Shown: piece after piece, positions 6,001 through 20,949 of the stretch
Numbering within the stretch: position 1 is the first letter of the stretch
Layout of the letters: the number at the start of each line of letters is the position of its first letter
Assembly (NCBI GenBank): GCA_039588295.1
Contig: JBDHAB010000159.1
Location: forward strand, 1-20,949
Origin: Gemmatimonadota bacterium
Lineage (GTDB): Bacteria; Gemmatimonadota; Gemmatimonadetes; Gemmatimonadales; GWC2-71-9
DNA length: 20,949 nucleotides
Reading direction: 5' to 3'
Made by a program: the position numbers

Positions 6001-9000
6001 ACGGTCGCGTGCGTGACTTGTGTCGGCCCCACGAGGGATCGTAACAGTCTGCGAACTCTCCCGCACTGCCGTTGGAATACGCATTGTCACCCGCCGTAAA
6101 CACGGTGCCCGAGATGCTATCGAGGAGTCTTGCCGTGGCCTCATCGCCGTCGTCACCGCACTTTGCGATGTCTCCGGCGCCGACCAGGGTCTCGAGGATC
6201 CCCGGGGCGGGTGCCTCGGCTGGTCCCGTCTCGCAAGCCGACACACACAACGCCAGACCCACAACGACGCCGACACAGGTGACACCAACTCGCACGCTGC
6301 GCTCCCAGTGGTTTCCTAGGGATACCCTAGACGGTAGCGCTTCGCTCGCGTCCGGCCGTAACGGGGATCACAACGGTCCTGACGGCCGCAGCACGCAGCG
6401 ACCTAGTGGTGCTCGCGCTGGAGGCTCTGGTACACGAACTCCACGAACCGCTCGGGGTTGATGAACGCTTGCCCCCAGGCCTCGTCATGATCGGCCATGA
6501 GATTCGCGGCCTTGATCTCGTCGAGTGTCGACCCGTCGGCGATGGCGGCCGCCACCCTGGTGCGCGCCAGGGCCAGCACGGCCCGGAAACGCTCGAGGTT
6601 GCCTCGCGTCGCGAGCGCCCCGTGACCCGGGATGATCTTGGTCTCGTCGTCGGCGATCGCCAACACCTGATCCGCGGCAGCGATCATTCCGTTCACGTCC
6701 CCACCGCTCCCGATATCGATGAACGGGTAGGTGCCATTGAAGAAGGTATCGCCCATGTGTATCACGTTCGCCCCGCGAAAGTGAATGATCGCGTCACCAT
6801 CGGTGTGCGCATGCGGCACATGGAACACGTGGAGCTCATCCCCGTTCAGATGAAAGGTGACGGTCTCGTTGAACGTGACGACGGGAAGTGCCTCCTCCGG
6901 CGACGGCGGCACCGTGCGCCCCAGCGCTTCCATGACCTGCTCGACGCTCATGCGCTGCCGCACGTTGTCGTGCGCGACGATGAGAGCGCCCATCTTCCCC
7001 ATGTTCTCGTTTCCGCCAACGTGGTCCCCGTGCCAGTGGGTGTTGACCACGAATCGAATGGGCTCATCGCTGAACCCGCGAATGGCCGCCACGATCTTCT
7101 CGGTGAGCGGTGCGTATTGGTCGTCGATTACGAACACACCGTCGGTCCCGGAGGAAACGCCGATATTCCCGCCCTGGCCGATAAGCATGTGCACACCGGG
7201 CCCGACCGCCACGGTCTGGATCTGAACGTCTTGCTGGGCGACGAGGGTGGATGCAGTGATAACGAAGGCCGAAAGAGCAACGCCGAACCGCATAGAGGAC
7301 TCCTCAAAGCTGGGGGAAGCCGAAGGGGCGCAAGCTACCGAGCAGTGCGGGTCTTGCCAACCCCGACAGCTTTCGTCGGACAGGCGGATTTGGGTGCATC
7401 GGCTCGGTGCGCCGGCGGAACTCGCGAATAAGCAGCTATGCTTACGTGTAGCGGTGAGTGGAGTCGGCGGTGCGAGGAAGGTGGACAATGGCGGCCGACT
7501 GTCGTTGCATCCATGGTCACGCGTCGCCACATACAAACGCAGACAGGACACAACGGGAGGCACCAGATGAGTCATCGACACAGGCGGGTGACGGGCGGAG
7601 TCGCGCTGGCGGCTGTCGTGAGTCTGTTGGGGTGCGCCAGCAGCGGCACCACGCGAAGCATGGAACCGGCCGTCGCGCCGTCGCTTGCCGCGCACGGCGT
7701 GTACGCGCGCTACATCGAGGCCATGGGCGGGCGGGCTGCGCTCGAACAGTACACGTCGACACACGTGGTCGGTCAGTTCCTCATGCCGTCCCAGGGCATC
7801 GACGGAGACCTGGAGGTGTTCGCGGCGGCGCCAAACCGGATTGCGATTCGCGTCGACATCCCCGGCTTTGGCACGGTGAACAATGGCTTCAACGGTGAGG
7901 TGGGTTGGACCATCAACCCGGCGGTGGGATCGTCGGTCCTCGAGGGAAGGGCGCTCAACCAGATGCGCCAGGAGGCGGACTTCCTCGGTCCACTCAACGT
8001 CGAGGCGTACGTCGACACCGCGGAGGTCGTCGAGGACACGGAGTTCGAGGGAAAGATGTGCCACAAGGTCCGCGTGGTGACGCGGTGGGGTGAAGAATAC
8101 GTCGAGTTCTATGACGTCGCGAGCGGCCTTCTGATGGGGGGAATCCGCGCGCAAGAGTCGCCGATGGGCCCGATGGAGACCACCACCGTGCTGTCCGACT
8201 ATCAGGAATTCGGCGGGATCATGATTCCGACGCGTATGGTGCAGCGGACGGCGGGGGTGGAACAGGTCATTACCGTCAGCGCCGTCGACTATGATACCGT
8301 CGATCCCGCCGTGTTCGCCGTGCCTGAGGAAATTGAGAGGCTGCTGAAGAAGCAGTAAGCAGCACGGGAGCCTCGATCGGACTTACCCGGTCCGGTCGAG
8401 GCGCCCCTCGGCTTGTCGAGCGAACCGTCTCCAGGCGCGTCCGATCCAGAGGGCCAAGGGCCAGGCAATGAGACACAGGATCGCCCGATGCATGAGGCGC
8501 ACGGCGCGCCGCCATAGCATGCCGATCGGGGGACTCAGGCGCTCCACCGACCCGACGATACGGTAGGCAGACGGCCCGGTCGACGGTACCAGCAGTCGGG
8601 CCCACAGCGAGCGGCGCTCCTCGCGACCGGCCTGGATGGCGAACACCCACTGCACCAATTGGTGAACCTCGAGGAAGACGCGGCGTCGACCTGCCCGCCG
8701 CATGATCTCGTACATGGCGTACCGCGAGAATGCGACCGACTGGAAGGCATCCACCACCGGTGCTTCATTGGCAACGGCCTCGGCCATGTCGAAGTACAGG
8801 CCAAGCGGTTTGGCGAAGCGATCGGCGCGCGTGCGCCGGCGGATTTCGGCTCGCTCATCCAGCGAGCACGCTCCCAGCCCATCCGACAGCAGTACGACAT
8901 CACGCAGCCGGCCGCGTCGATTGAAGTGAGCCGCAGTGGCGTGGTAGCACAGGTACCAGGCATGTTCCACCGGTTCGAGTCCAAGCAGGCCAGGTGCCAC

Positions 9001-18000: not shown

Positions 18001-20949
18001 CCGTCTCACGTCCCACTCGAGCGACGTCGGGTCGTCGATCTCGATGACCGTTCCGGGGTCGAGCCGTCTCACCCCCTCGATCATCGTGTCCGCGCGATGA
18101 TCCGTTCGCCCGGTCGCCAGGTAGTCCACTGTTGGGTGTAAGGCAGCCCGCACGGCCGTGGGGTGGATTCGGAGAACTGCGGGGATTTCCGAGGCGAAGG
18201 CCAGGCCTCCCACTACGGGGCGCAAAAAAAGCGGTTTCTGCCCCAGGTGATCGCGCGCGAACACCACCGTCCGGCGTTCACGATCGACAATCACGAAGGC
18301 GAACATCCCGGCAAGTCGCTCGAGACACCCGAGACCCCAGCGCTCGTACGCGGCGAGCAGCACCTCGGTATCCGAGCGTCCGCGGAACCCGTATCCCTCG
18401 CGCTCCAGTTCCTGTCTCAGCTCGACGTGATTGTAGATCTCCCCGTTGTAGGCGAGCCAGATCCGCTGGTCGGCAGACGGCATCGGCTGGGCGCCGGCTG
18501 GACCGAGGTCGAGGATGGCGAGCCGCCGGTGCGCGATGACGACCGAGAATTCGAGATCGTCGTCCGCGGCTGGGACGTCGGTGCGCTGTGACGCGGTCTC
18601 GAGATAGCCTAGCCCATCATTGGCGGCCAGGACGAGGAGTGCCTCGTCATCCGGACCACGATGGTGCAGCATGTGGCCGGCAGCACGTACTCCGTCGAGC
18701 ACGGCTTCGGGATGTCCGACGCCGATCCAGCCCGCAATGCCGCACATCAGCGGCCCCGAGACTCGGCACCGGCGATCGCAGCCGGTATATTGACAAGCAA
18801 CCGAACCGACCAGAGGGTCTGACGCATCCACTCATGACTACCATCCATCCCGACCGTCCGCCAGCCGACTGGATCGACCAGATGAGCGACGAGCAGTGTA
18901 TGGAGATCTTCTGGCTCTACGTCGATCCGCCGGAGCCGTTTCTCGAAGGGCACCCTCCTGCGCTCCTCGGCCGGGCGATGCGATACGCCCTGCACCAGGT
19001 GGCGGACGAGACCGCGCGGCGCCAAGAGAAGTAACCTCAGCGCAAAACGCCCGGCACTGGGCCGGGCGCTGCGGCTACGTCCACGCTACGCCCTTACGCT
19101 ACGGCCACTGAAACTGCCGCTCACTCCTTCTCGAGCGTCTTCTTCAGCTTGGCCAGTTCCTTCCGCGCGGCCGCGTTCACCGTGGGGAACTTGAGGTCCA
19201 ACGATGTGAGCGCGTCGACGATCGCCGCTGCGACGACGACACGGGTAAACCACTTCTTGTCGGCCGGCACCACATACCACGGCGCTTGCTCGGTCGCCGT
19301 GTTCCGGATCATGTCTTCGTACGCCTCCATGTACTGATCCCAATGCTCGCGCTCGGCGACGTCTCCGGCGGAGAACTTCCAGTTCTTTTCCGATCGGTCG
19401 ATGCGGTCGAGGAAGCGTTCCTTCTGTTCGTTCTTTGACACGTGCAAAAAGAACTTGCGAATCGCCACCCCGTTGCGCGTGAGGTGACGCTCGAGGTTCC
19501 GGATATCCTCGAACCGCTCCGACCAGATCTCGTCGGTCACCAGCTCGGGTGGCAGTTTCTGGCCCGCGAGGATTCCGGGATGGACACGCACGACAAGCGT
19601 CTCTTCGTAGTAGGAGCGATTGAAGATCCCGATACGTCCGCGCTCCGGAAGGCGCTTGACACAGCGCCACAGATAGTCGTGGTCCAGCTCCTCTTTGCTC
19701 GGCGCCTTGAACGAGAACACCTGACAGCCCTGCGGGTTGACGCCGGACATGACGTGCTTGATCGCGCTGTCCTTACCGGCGGCGTCCATCGCCTGAAAGA
19801 CCAGCAGCACCGCCCACTTGTCCTGCGCGTAGAGCATCTCCTGCAGCTCCGCCATCGCCTTGACGCCTGCCTTCAGAGCCTTCTTGGCCTGTGGCTTGTC
19901 CTCGGATCCGAGGTCACCCGTGTCGCCGGGGTCAAAATCGGCGAGTCGGAACGCGTCACCGTCGGTGACGCGGTAGGGTTCGGAGAGACGCTGGGCCTTG
20001 CTGGCGAATTTCTCGGACCTCATGACCGCTCCTACGGCGTCCCGCGCCACGCCGAGTAGTCCACATCCAGCGGCGGCGGAGCGGCATTCCGTTGATCACC
20101 TGGTTGGAGATAGTGGTCAAACCAGCGGAGCGCCCGCAGCGCATAATCGTACCGATAGACGTTCGTCCGATTGCCGTGGCCCTCACCCGGATACCGGACG
20201 TACCGCACGGGTGTCTCCGTGCTGGTCTTGACCGCCCGATAGAGCATATGCGGTTGGCTCGGGTGGACGCGGGGATCGTTCGTCCCGCCCAGGACGAGAA
20301 GGGGGGTCCGGCACTGCGGTGCGTACGTCAACGGGCTGCGCTCGCTCAAGAAGTCCCACTGCTCGTGAGGCCACCGCTCCTCGTAGTGCACGTAGTAGTA
20401 CTCCCAGGGGATGTCGGTGGTGAGCCACTTCGTGGGCACGTGGGTAACCGGCACAAAACTCACGGATGCGGCAAAGTGCTCCGAGTGACGAGTGGCGGCC
20501 CACGCTGCGGTGTAGCCGCCATACGACCCGCCGCCGATCCCGACGCGAGCACGATCGACCCACCCACGCTCGACGAAGTGCGCGATGGCATCCAGATGGT
20601 CCTCGAACTCACGGCCCATCGGATCTCCATGGTCCGCCTTTGCGAATTCGACCCCGCGCCCCGTGCTCGACCGATAGTTGGGGAACCACACGAAGTAACC
20701 GCCGCGACTCAGGAGCTGACCCCAGCCGCTGTACGTGGTCACCCACTGGTTTCGGTAGTGGCTCTCGGGTCCCCCGTGCGCCACGATCACCAGCGGGTAG
20801 CGGCGGCCCTGCTCGAAGTCCAACGGAGCCAGCAGAATCCCCTCGATCTCCACACCATCGCCGGCTGGGAAGCGATAGACCTCCTGCCGACCCAGGGGAA
20901 TCTCGTCGAGCCATGGATTCGAATTCGTCCGACGAGTCCACGAGCCACC

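Follow-up and report, generated by a model that had tools for sequence, protein, structure and literature searches.

A candidate biosynthetic gene cluster for an undescribed family of Trp-Trp peptides in Gemmatimonadota and other uncultured bacteria

The window, a stretch of 20,949 nucleotides from a Gemmatimonadota bacterium, contains a small gene on the minus strand (14403..14534) which encodes a 43 aa precursor peptide, MAQSSKQQKRGQYIAPAVTVLTEEEVLEVFQITTAGMSGWWMM, and carries an AGGAG Shine-Dalgarno sequence immediately 5' of its ORF. The peptide gene is flanked on one side by a gene for a PqqD-family RRE, a peptide chaperone (14551..14829, minus strand; Pfam PqqD, 3.8e-15), and on the other by a gene for an HPr-kinase-like P-loop kinase (13328..14386, minus strand; Hpr_kinase_C, 1.8e-5). 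The same strand continues with a 179 aa 'helical' protein (12792..13331), the DUF455 protein DUF455a (11976..12782; Pfam DUF455, 6.4e-26) and its paralogue DUF455b (11222..11992; Pfam DUF455, 1.1e-20), a membrane protein with about eight hydrophobic segments and no known family, a soluble peptidase homologue referred to here as g10, and an NTP_transf_5 nucleotidyltransferase. Two Asn_synthase genes are located upstream of the peptide, followed by a gene for a small conserved protein, F6. The gene calls, Pfam matches and hydropathy agree with the survey's finding on this arrangement, including the position of the peptide ORF between the PqqD and kinase genes, the order of the downstream genes and the Asn-synthetase homologues alongside. 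The peptide gene and its neighbouring genes are real.

The leader of the peptide carries the motif Y13-x-x-P16...F30-Q31-I-T-T, which is of the lasso type (Y-x-x-P-x-[VIL] ... F-Q-[IVLM]-T-x), and is followed by the presumed core AGMSGWWMM. In 35 aligned peptides from several phyla the only invariant residues are Y13, P16, F30 and Q31 of the leader and W40 and W41 of the core. The core consensus A-[AG]-x-S-(x)-W-W that was proposed earlier is therefore too narrow, and judging from the alignment the W-W pair is the sole fixed feature of a short and variable core. The 55 distinct cores span 7-27 residues, which makes a fixed small ring unlikely; those of Gemmatimonadota mostly have 7-9. It is highly improbable that there is no peptide pathway at all, with the small ORF being regulatory or spurious and the enzymes acting on a lipid or another small molecule. 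The lipid-type membrane enzymes found as accessory parts (FA_hydroxylase, HTTM) would suit such a role, but the ORF is conserved as a protein across phyla, its six invariant residues standing out against synonymous and flanking variation, it is adjoined by the PqqD RRE in almost all loci, and it is equipped with the Shine-Dalgarno sequence.

Matches to the kinase occur in 17 of 401 Gemmatimonadota genomes, the same count as had been obtained before; those in L034 and L035 are unrelated weak matches and not part of this cluster. Gene order is preserved in all 15 syntenic Gemmatimonadota loci, and a Trp-Trp ORF beside the foreign kinase gene, as previously described, is present in each of the 15, in 14 by pattern and in L021 by ORF clustering. 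The extent of the cluster is far wider than in the first reading. With the helical protein as marker, a search of one-genome-per-species contigs found 120 relatives, from which 80 loci under at least seven phylum- or class-level labels were kept, their hosts being MAGs of Gemmatimonadota, Acidobacteriota, Thermoanaerobaculia, Proteobacteria, Methylomirabilia, Chloroflexota and Acidimicrobiia. Among the 47 'full' loci, each flanked by 6 kb or more on either side, the HprK-like kinase, the helical protein, DUF455a and DUF455b are each present in 47, the Trp-Trp peptide in 46, g10 in 43, PqqD in 42, any Asn synthetase in 38, either the eight-segment membrane protein (TM8) or an FA_hydroxylase in 38, and NTP_transf_5 in 34; these locus counts are not independent because all loci derive from MAGs and many are related.

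Asn-synthetase homologue 1 (14920..16809, plus strand; Asn_synthase, 8.3e-54) starts with MAGLAL, lacks the N-terminal Cys nucleophile and has a weak GATase match. Asn-synthetase homologue 2 (16816..18747, minus strand) retains MCGIAGW, reaches 359 bits with asn_synth_AEB (cut-off 267) and 1e-42 with GATase_6/7, and classifies by sequence as a glutamine-dependent amidotransferase. A Cys1-less homologue next to a lasso-like leader (Y-x-x-P; Thr at position -2), together with the mostly short Gemmatimonadota cores and a PqqD protein that is nearest to lasso B1 models (3.9e-8 for the lasso PqqD chaperone of NCBIfam, below cut-off), could point to a lasso-type system, degenerate or variant, whose Asn-synthetase-like cyclase would form a ring, e.g. 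head-to-tail, from a core of 7-9 residues. This is very unlikely. None of the 55 cores has Asp/Glu at position 7-9, also when the cut is moved by up to two residues either way, and the peptide is therefore not a lasso peptide, which upholds the earlier view that no lasso ring can form. Furthermore, homologue 1 scores 192.9 bits against the lasso cyclase model, whose cut-off is 525, its close full-length orthologues (57-64% identical) are found in L019 and L020 only and thus confined to the genus, no Asn synthetase lies near the cluster in 9 of the 47 full loci, cores extend up to 27 residues, and no B2 protease is present in the window, matches to PF13471 being located on contigs C2 and C4 only. 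The survey had suggested that the Asn-synthetase homologues serve a purpose other than lasso ring formation, such as head-to-tail closure or amidation. Most of the Asn synthetases that adjoin the cluster in other phyla have retained the Cys of the glutaminase, and amidation therefore fits better than head-to-tail closure.

The cluster was previously thought to lack a leader protease; g10 (9588..10112, minus strand), however, is a homologue of Sec11/SipW-type (S26B-like) Ser/His peptidases. A profile of g10 matches human SEC11A at 3.2e-4 with the Ser, His and GD motifs aligned, and S36, H73, D93 and D99 are invariant in 21 sequences. TIGR02228 is matched by 7 of 8 and by 4 of 4 g10 members in two sets, with a best score among the four members listed of 36.9 against a curated cut-off of 51.85, whereas the window's own copy on its own matched no model. 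Hydropathy gives no TM segment or membrane anchor. This soluble, signal-peptidase-I-like Ser/His/Asp protease is likely to be the leader peptidase of the cluster. The presumed cut, T-[STAQ]|A, is preceded by I, V, M or L at position -3 and by Thr at -2 in 51 of 57 leaders, while position -1 is mostly Ser or Ala, with Gln in 12 of the 57 and Val in several others. Gln and Val at this position are unusual for signal-peptidase-type enzymes, and the leader may be cut one or two residues from the presumed site.

The survey spoke of three DUF455 enzymes, of which Pfam finds two; the third, the helical protein, is ferritin-like by its predicted fold only. Both paralogues, which share 33% identity, hold a complete E...ExxH...E...ExxH ligand set, and in DUF455a numbering E54, D85, H89, E135, D167-E168 and H171 are invariant in 50 sequences of the two, with E86 conserved in at least 90%. 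Bacterioferritin is hit by a DUF455 profile at 8e-5, in an alignment that spans both ExxH motifs. The AF2 model of DUF455a (pLDDT 93.6) resembles the aldehyde-deformylating oxygenase ADO (Z 16.0) and the azoxy synthase VlmB (Z 15.8), and that of the helical protein (pLDDT 97.7) resembles the toluene-4-monooxygenase beta chain 3dhg_B (VIA Z 16.5, 176 aa aligned, rmsd 3.1), although for helical bundles a Z of 15-16 exceeds the background only modestly. The metal site earlier proposed from E-x-x-H motifs is supported by full ligand sets and by a model that fits diiron oxygenases, and DUF455a is a candidate ferritin-like diiron oxygenase. The helical protein has no conserved ExxH metal site and cannot be linked to DUF455 by sequence (hhalign probability 0.3%), and a C-terminal DUF455 domain is fused to it in 21 of 30 long relatives; from the model it is predicted to be a third protein with the ferritin fold, one that lacks a metal site, and probably acts as a non-catalytic partner. 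Catalytic and non-catalytic subunits are combined in toluene monooxygenase and PaaAC, and by analogy a similar division may apply to the three ferritin-fold proteins. Enzyme content follows core sequence: a third DUF455 gene is present in exactly 10 loci, which are those with long Cys-rich cores of the [AS][EQK]I[SG]...WW...C type.

The kinase has the Walker A motif GAREAGKTT and matches TIGR04352 at 4.5e-11, below cut-off. H167, G187-K188 and D205 are invariant in 29 homologues, so that its catalytic motifs (P-loop, His, Asp) are intact at the sequence level. NTP_transf_5 (8383..9756, minus strand) matches its Pfam model at 3.6e-18 over residues 102-327, and its true start is probably near 9600. 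In lasso clusters a Ser of the precursor is phosphorylated by an HPr-kinase homologue, and the phosphate is glycosylated by a nucleotidyltransferase (PMC8498205). With this precedent, the defining step of the family could be phosphorylation of the Ser/Thr adjacent to W-W by the kinase and NTP_transf_5, alone or combined with transfer of a nucleotidyl or glycosyl group, the Trp pair being a recognition element and the ferritin-fold proteins serving as scaffold, in iron handling or in modification of other residues. The presence of an intact kinase in every full locus, the Ser/Thr which 43 of 55 cores have one or two residues before W-W and the recurrence of an HprK-like and PqqD pair in other cassettes (the ScmC/ScmD lead) speak for such a scheme, which is nevertheless improbable, given that 12 of the 55 cores have no Ser/Thr at these positions, that NTP_transf_5 is missing from part of the loci, that the diiron ligand sets of both DUF455 paralogues are complete and strongly conserved, and that loci differ in the number of DUF455 genes according to core type. 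Since Ser/Thr is near W-W in only those 43 cores and is found nowhere before W-W in 2 of 55, the target of the kinase is not fixed.

A somewhat less remote, though still unlikely, reading is that the peptide is a sacrificial precursor from which Trp-Trp is excised as a small redox cofactor or chromophore rather than secreted as a peptide, yielding a tryptophylquinone-like molecule made much as PQQ or mycofactocin are, with a possible link to TTQ chemistry. This would account for the invariance of W-W amid surroundings that vary or are very short, for the PqqD chaperone, which PQQ and mycofactocin pathways also employ, for the several oxygenase-type enzymes (two DUF455, FA_hydroxylase, an Asp/Arg hydroxylase) and for the fact that Pfam and NCBIfam recognise no exporter or transporter in the window. 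Cofactor precursors, however, are usually near-invariant, whereas the sequences on either side of W-W are hypervariable and specific to lineages, with Cys-rich tails and the full range of core lengths, and some loci (L056, L065) hold two precursor copies. Moreover, no dependent dehydrogenase is conserved next to the cluster, and its presence in the phylum is patchy, as is typical of secondary metabolism.

The favoured interpretation, held with a little more confidence than doubt, is that the cluster directs the biosynthesis of an undescribed family of ribosomal peptides, the Trp-Trp peptides, whose Trp pair is modified by a three-part diiron oxygenase. That no transporter is evident in the window counts against it. 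No published description of such a cluster was found in the literature, and the genes appear to make up a peptide natural-product pathway, hitherto undescribed, of uncultured bacteria that belong to many phyla. The survey's reading of a ribosomally made and modified peptide holds as far as the conserved peptide-maturation cluster is concerned, while oxidation or cross-linking of Trp is retained as a proposal. In the proposed pathway PqqD would bind the leader and present the core to one multi-subunit, O2-activating diiron enzyme built from the three ferritin-fold proteins, on the analogy of PaaAC and toluene monooxygenase, which would hydroxylate and/or oxidatively cross-link the two indoles. 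The kinase would phosphorylate the Ser/Thr found in most cores ahead of W-W, or else a hydroxyl made by the oxygenase, and NTP_transf_5 may extend the resulting phosphate (cf. the lasso peptide pseudomycoidin). The leader would be removed by g10 near T-[STAQ]|A, and the C-terminus, the only available carboxylate, may be amidated or ligated by the Asn-synthetase homologues in an extra, lineage-specific step.

Membrane proteins, FA_hydroxylase, a formyltransferase and HTTM may contribute optional tailoring or export. The membrane protein (10123..11193, minus strand) has no Pfam or NCBIfam match and falls into hypothetical clusters only in the Atlas; its position is taken in other loci by FA_hydroxylase, whose nearest NCBIfam model is OlsE (78.8 bits against a cut-off of 475). 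F6 (18834..19034, plus strand; about 66 aa) carries the motif WID..DEQCMEIFWLYVDPPEPFL. Neither its homologue in L024 nor the window's copy, scanned inside the longer ORF 18588-19034 only, matches Pfam or NCBIfam. F6 adjoins the gene of the Asn-synthetase homologue 2 type in Gemmatimonadota loci and is present in 17 of the 47 full loci.

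The Trp-Trp peptide is encoded by a minus-strand ORF (14403-14534) that reads MAQSSKQQKRGQYIAPAVTVLTEEEVLEVFQITTAGMSGWWMM and carries AGGAG directly 5' of its start codon. The gene is part of a single co-directional minus-strand run that extends from PqqD to NTP_transf_5, with families assigned by Pfam and NCBIfam scans of the 26 ORFs of the window. The run comprises PqqD (14551-14829; Pfam PqqD 3.8e-15), whose nearest NCBIfam models are lasso PqqD chaperones that it matches under their cut-off, followed by the peptide, an HPr-kinase-like protein (13328-14386; Hpr_kinase_C 1.8e-5), a helical protein of 179 residues without family (12792-13331), DUF455a (11976-12782; Pfam 6.4e-26), DUF455b (11222-11992; Pfam 1.1e-20), TM8, a family-less membrane protein with about eight hydrophobic segments by hydropathy (10123-11193) and only unnamed clusters as matches in the protein atlas, g10 (9588-10112), which alone has no Pfam or NCBIfam match, and NTP_transf_5 (8383-9756; Pfam 3.6e-18; start probably at ~9600). 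AsnS1, an Asn-synthetase homologue (14920-16809, plus strand), is divergent from PqqD and begins MAGLAL, without the N-terminal Cys, and beyond it lie AsnS2, another such homologue (16816-18747, minus strand) with an intact MCGIAGW, and F6, a small conserved protein (18834-19034, plus strand). A scan for promoters and terminators around the peptide gene found none, and a search of sequencing runs with sampled words gave partial shares in DNA runs and listed no RNA run. Both flanks appear unrelated: on the left are arginine biosynthesis genes, a beta-lactamase-family protein, an M20 peptidase, a phosphoesterase, a secreted metallo-beta-lactamase-fold protein and a lipoprotein, while PPK2 and an S9 peptidase make up the right one. 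The left-flank ORF at 6403-8154 (minus strand, 583 aa) is over-extended, its real match being confined to the last ~255 residues, which start in signal-peptide-like fashion at MRFGVALSAF and match the metallo-beta-lactamase fold, with a 'quinoprotein relay system' hydrolase as best NCBIfam model (103 bits against a cut-off of 280); the ORF at 7438-8358 (plus strand) has a lipoprotein-like start and no family.

Matches to the HPr-kinase-like protein occur in 17 of the 401 Gemmatimonadota genomes sampled, the same number as in the survey's finding. With up to 20 kb fetched around each match, the order PqqD, peptide, kinase, helical protein, DUF455a, DUF455b is kept in 15 foreign Gemmatimonadota loci, and every one of the 15 encodes a Trp-Trp peptide; two weak kinase matches (L034, L035) belong to unrelated loci. 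The helical protein, being cluster-specific and without family, served as a marker for a search of contigs from one genome per species. This returned 120 relatives, and the best 80 of the 120 loci were kept. Fifteen of the 80 duplicate loci of the Gemmatimonadota search; the remainder are in metagenome-assembled genomes labelled Gemmatimonadota, Acidobacteriota, Thermoanaerobaculia, Burkholderiales, Alpha- and Gammaproteobacteria, Methylomirabilia, Chloroflexota and Acidimicrobiia. The family is found only in uncultured bacteria of soil, sediment and groundwater, spread over many phyla. Gene content was counted in those 47 loci, out of the best 80 of 120, that have at least 6 kb on either side; because every locus derives from a metagenome bin and the loci are mutually related, these counts characterise the family and should not be taken as independent trials. 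The kinase, the helical protein, DUF455a and DUF455b are each present in 47/47 loci and a W-W peptide in 46 (43 by pattern, three by eye, none found in L102), followed by g10 (43), PqqD (42), some Asn synthetase (38), TM8 or an FA_hydroxylase (38), NTP_transf_5 (34), a formyltransferase (32), an HTTM protein with its partner F10 (23) and F6 (17). The recurrent accessory module consists of an Fmt-like Formyl_trans_N protein, the family-less F10 (210 aa) and the HTTM-domain membrane protein (for example L021:11206-13699 and L028:11060-14375), and the F10 and HTTM pair is present in two or three copies in some loci. In L033/L042, which are one contig, the region from 5.7 to 11.7 kb holds a TM8 match in four pieces, a DUF455a match in two and a truncated kinase match; these breaks reflect either assembly indels or a cluster that is decaying through frameshifts.

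The peptides combine a conserved leader with a highly variable core. When 35 peptides are aligned, only Y13, P16, F30, Q31, W40 and W41 show no variation at all and L27 shows almost none, and the leader follows the pattern Y-x-x-P-x-[VIL]-x-x-[ML]-x-E-x-[ED]-[VIL]-L-x-x-F-Q-[IVLM]-T-x. Across 57 distinct leader/core pairs the residue at -3 from the presumed cut is always I, V, M or L, Thr occupies -2 in 51, and -1 is Ser (21), Ala (13), Gln (12) or else Thr or Val. The 55 distinct cores are 7-27 residues long and begin with Ala (43), Ser (9), Val (2) or Asn (1); W-W is directly preceded by S, T, C, A, M, G or V, and a Ser or Thr stands one or two positions before W-W in 43 of the 55. Three lineage types can be distinguished, namely A[AG]x[ST]WW plus one or two residues in Gemmatimonadota, [AS]MxxWWxxxC in Thermoanaerobaculia/Acidobacteria, and [AS][EQK]I[SG]xAxxWWxxC... 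with several Cys in several proteobacterial and other bins. The short core consensus proposed earlier applies to the first type alone. The predicted complex of PqqD and the peptide scored 0.56, and a control in which an unrelated protein replaced PqqD scored 0.50. Two Acidobacteria loci, L056 (8743-8865 and 15365-15487) and L065 (8743-8865 and 16957-17079), each carry two near-identical precursor genes with the core VAGSWWG, and in each of them the second copy, several kb away, adjoins PqqD and g10.

Three proteins of the cluster are predicted to have a ferritin fold. The cluster had been described as having three DUF455 enzymes, which stands as regards fold and partnership; membership in the Pfam family (PF04305, gathering threshold 34.3 bits) is limited to the two genes in 11222-12782, which score 91.9 and 74.7 bits. 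The diiron ligand positions E54, H89, E135, E168 and H171 as well as D85 and D167 are invariant in 50 sequences from both paralogues, and at least 90% of them also have the further ligand E86. A combined DUF455a and DUF455b profile matches bacterioferritin at 8e-5 over both ExxH motifs, and PaaC marginally (0.09). Built on a 50-row alignment, the model of DUF455a has a pLDDT of 93.6, compared with 47 for the survey's model of the cluster protein g04213. It forms a four-helix bundle with the E...ExxH...E...ExxH arrangement and superimposes on aldehyde-deformylating oxygenase (ADO; Z 16.0, 183 residues, rmsd 3.7), azoxy synthase VlmB (Z 15.8, 201 residues), MiaE (Z 14.7) and bacterioferritins (Z ~15).

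The helical protein has no Pfam DUF455 match, aligns to DUF455 with a probability of 0.3% in hhalign, finds no match in a profile search of the PDB and contains no conserved ExxH. Its model (pLDDT 97.7) places 176 of 179 residues on the beta subunit of toluene-4-monooxygenase hydroxylase (Z 16.5, rmsd 3.1), and the next best alignments are to Dps and bacterioferritins (Z ~15); Foldseek with the same model gave nothing at E <= 0.001, the best match being a ferritin-like protein at 0.014. Searching exhaustively with a profile gave 898 representatives with E <= 0.001. Of the 30 relatives longer than 300 residues, 21 consist of an N-terminal helical domain and a C-terminal DUF455 domain, and a few distant relatives themselves match DUF455, Ferritin, PaaA_PaaC or MiaE_2 models. 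The tie of the helical protein to ferritins and DUF455 is drawn solely from predicted fold and fusions, the sequence searches being negative. Such fusions are seen in many metagenomic proteins of 390-550 aa (P0038, P0061, P0067, P0068, P0075, P0080 and others), and another metagenomic group of 303-444 aa joins the helical domain to a C-terminal part without assigned family. Within the clusters, DUF455a and DUF455b share a single frame in one locus (L100). Apparent fusions of the helical protein with DUF455a in L020, L028 and L029 are artefacts, since in this high-GC DNA the DUF455a frame meets no stop codon for a long way upstream, right through the helical gene, and yields false ORFs of ~460 aa; the two genes share a frame in none of the 80 loci.

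The trio is read here as one enzyme composed of two catalytic subunits and one non-catalytic subunit. DUF455a and DUF455b share the four-helix bundle and the E...ExxH...E...ExxH motif with toluene/phenol monooxygenase hydroxylase alpha/beta, PaaA/PaaC, ADO, VlmB and MiaE, and a same-fold partner without metal site is likewise a feature of multi-subunit diiron oxygenases such as toluene/phenol monooxygenase and PaaA/PaaC. Unlike these systems, the cluster lacks a reductase, a ferredoxin and an effector protein, its substrate is presumed to be a ribosomal peptide, and the sequence similarity is marginal. Iron-dependent, O2-using oxidases that work with a partner protein on a leader-bearing peptide exist among RiPP enzymes in the form of the MNIOs (DUF692; methanobactin and bufferin type), which are TIM barrels unrelated to the ferritin-like fold and have Cys or Asp as their usual targets; Pfam matched no DUF692 among the window ORFs. 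The most far-reaching reading, which falls a little short of an even chance, is that a three-subunit ferritin-like diiron oxygenase, made up of the two DUF455 paralogues and their metal-free partner, acts on the ribosomal peptide and turns the invariant Trp-Trp into a hydroxylated, cross-linked or quinone-type bis-indole. If true, this would be the first function for DUF455, a widespread, functionally uncharacterised family now tied to a defined substrate candidate in the 43-aa peptide with its fixed Trp-Trp, and the first ferritin-fold enzyme in RiPP biosynthesis. A new class of enzyme, and probably novel chemistry at Trp, would be added to ribosomal natural products, and the product, be it an antibiotic, a signal, a metal binder or a cofactor, would represent an unexplored compound class. 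Literature searches, whose scope excluded most subscription journals, found nothing on DUF455/PF04305 or on a ferritin-like or diiron enzyme acting on a Trp-containing RiPP, and queries on HprK-related kinases with PqqD and on diiron, RiPP, RRE and Trp found nothing on the Trp-Trp system. The text of the RRE-Finder paper makes no mention of HPr, ferritin, DUF455, asparagine synth or signal peptidase.

A third DUF455 gene is located upstream of the kinase in ten loci (L054, L058, L087, L089, L093, L094, L095, L099, L105 and L107; the cluster lies at about 7.4-13 kb in each), and these are exactly the ten with long, Cys-rich [AS][EQK]I[SG]...WW...C cores. The order in this subfamily is PqqD, peptide, third DUF455, kinase, helical protein, DUF455a, DUF455b, g10 and an Asn synthetase lacking Cys1, and its bins are assigned to Burkholderiales, Gamma- and Alphaproteobacteria, Acidobacteriota, Thermoanaerobaculia and Acidimicrobiia. 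This links DUF455 gene content to core type, the ten loci counting as one event because they form a single subfamily. An eleventh candidate, L041, was flagged by script solely on account of a rearrangement.

A lasso peptide was considered as an alternative product. PqqD supplies a separate B1-type RRE, and the leader has the invariant Tyr and Pro of Y-x-x-P together with the frequent Thr at -2. According to PMC8498205, leader, RRE, kinase and nucleotidyltransferase are all found in phosphorylated and glycosylated lasso clusters; the paeninodin and pseudomycoidin clusters share with the present one the Y-x-x-P leader with Thr at -2, the separate PqqD/B1 RRE, the HPr-kinase-like enzyme, the nucleotidyltransferase and the Asn-synthetase homologues. 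In contrast to lasso clusters, no Asp or Glu occurs at core positions 7-9 in any of the 55 distinct cores, even with the cut moved by up to two residues either way, and neither AsnS1 (192.9 bits) nor AsnS2 (212.3 bits) reaches the lasso cyclase cut-off of 525 (NF033535/NF033561). The B2 transglutaminase-type protease is missing as well, as had been noted before: no window ORF has such a Pfam match, and PF13471 is confined to C2 and C4, two other contigs of the genome. On these three counts a lasso peptide was rejected. What is conserved here instead is a set of three ferritin-fold proteins together with an S26-like peptidase, none of them part of lasso clusters. Lasso-type leader, RRE and kinase modules would then be reused with different core enzymes. 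Head-to-tail closure into a ring of 7-9 residues was likewise discarded; it suits the Gemmatimonadota cores and not the 10-27-residue cores elsewhere. The cofactor pathways of PQQ and mycofactocin resemble the cluster in that a small precursor is paired with a PqqD-family chaperone and modified at two residues that are aromatic or adjacent, and differ from it in that none of the 26 window ORFs gives a radical SAM (PqqE-like) match and the Trp-Trp cores are hypervariable.

The leader protease that the survey had found missing may be present in the cluster in the form of g10, which its motifs mark as a candidate Sec11-type peptidase homologue. The protein contains GASMEP...HRL...TQGDG, and S36, H73, R74, D93 and D99 are invariant in 21 g10 sequences. 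An eight-member g10 profile matches human SEC11A (3.2e-4) and SEC11C with the catalytic Ser, His and GD(N) Asp aligned (GSMEPA, HR and GDN in SEC11A). TIGR02228 (archaeal/Sec11-type signal peptidase I) is matched under its cut-off by seven of the eight profile members and by all four homologues from other phyla, the best score being 36.9 bits against 51.85 among the four family members whose scores were shown; g10 of the window alone has no match to this model. The likeness to S26B signal peptidase I (Sec11/SipW/archaeal) thus lies in the invariant GxSMxP Ser, HR His and GD...D Asp, and the differences in scores under curated cut-offs and in the membrane anchor, as hydropathy shows no hydrophobic segment in g10, N-terminal or otherwise, so that cytoplasmic action is expected. 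The substrate differs too, the Trp-Trp leader being acidic and amphipathic with no signal peptide. Signal peptidases of this class prefer a small residue at -1 and an aliphatic one at -3, which is fitted by the leader end [IVML]-T-[SA] found before Ala; the Gln at -1 of 12 leaders suggests that the cut may lie one residue later in some lineages. One g10 homologue also matches the model of SodX, the NiSOD maturation protease, which is dedicated to removing an N-terminal propeptide. If g10 acts on the leader, a soluble signal-peptidase-I homologue would have been recruited as a new kind of leader peptidase.

The HPr-kinase-like protein is probably active, judging from its motifs, as none of 29 sequences departs from H167, G182, G187-K188-[ST] or D205, which provide the P-loop, His and Asp. 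Its target may be the Ser/Thr before W-W or a hydroxyl made by the oxygenase. Curated cut-offs are missed both by the kinase (TIGR04352 HprK_rel_A, 42.4 bits against 200) and by PqqD (TIGR04353 PqqD_rel_X, 23.8 against 35). The nearest named clusters of the kinase in the protein atlas carry ScmC and Hpr_kinase_C families, which is a lead only, and PqqD matches ScmD weakly; the HprK-like and PqqD proteins may therefore form a recurrent module. Among the 15 Gemmatimonadota loci, only the two from the same genus have close full-length orthologues of AsnS1 (57-64% identical). Elsewhere, the Asn synthetases that accompany the cluster mostly start MCG[IL], including MCG[IL]S forms, and the Cys1-less enzyme of the Cys-rich-core subfamily starts MRGGF. 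A glutamine-dependent enzyme next to a core without acidic residues would make C-terminal amidation the simplest role. In most Gemmatimonadota loci the Cys1-bearing Asn-synthetase gene is adjoined, in varying orientation, by F6 (for example L024:15056-15256), a conserved protein of about 66 aa with the motif WID.L.DEQCMEIFWLYVDPPEPFL and no Pfam or NCBIfam family, which could act as a partner or regulator or be a second substrate.
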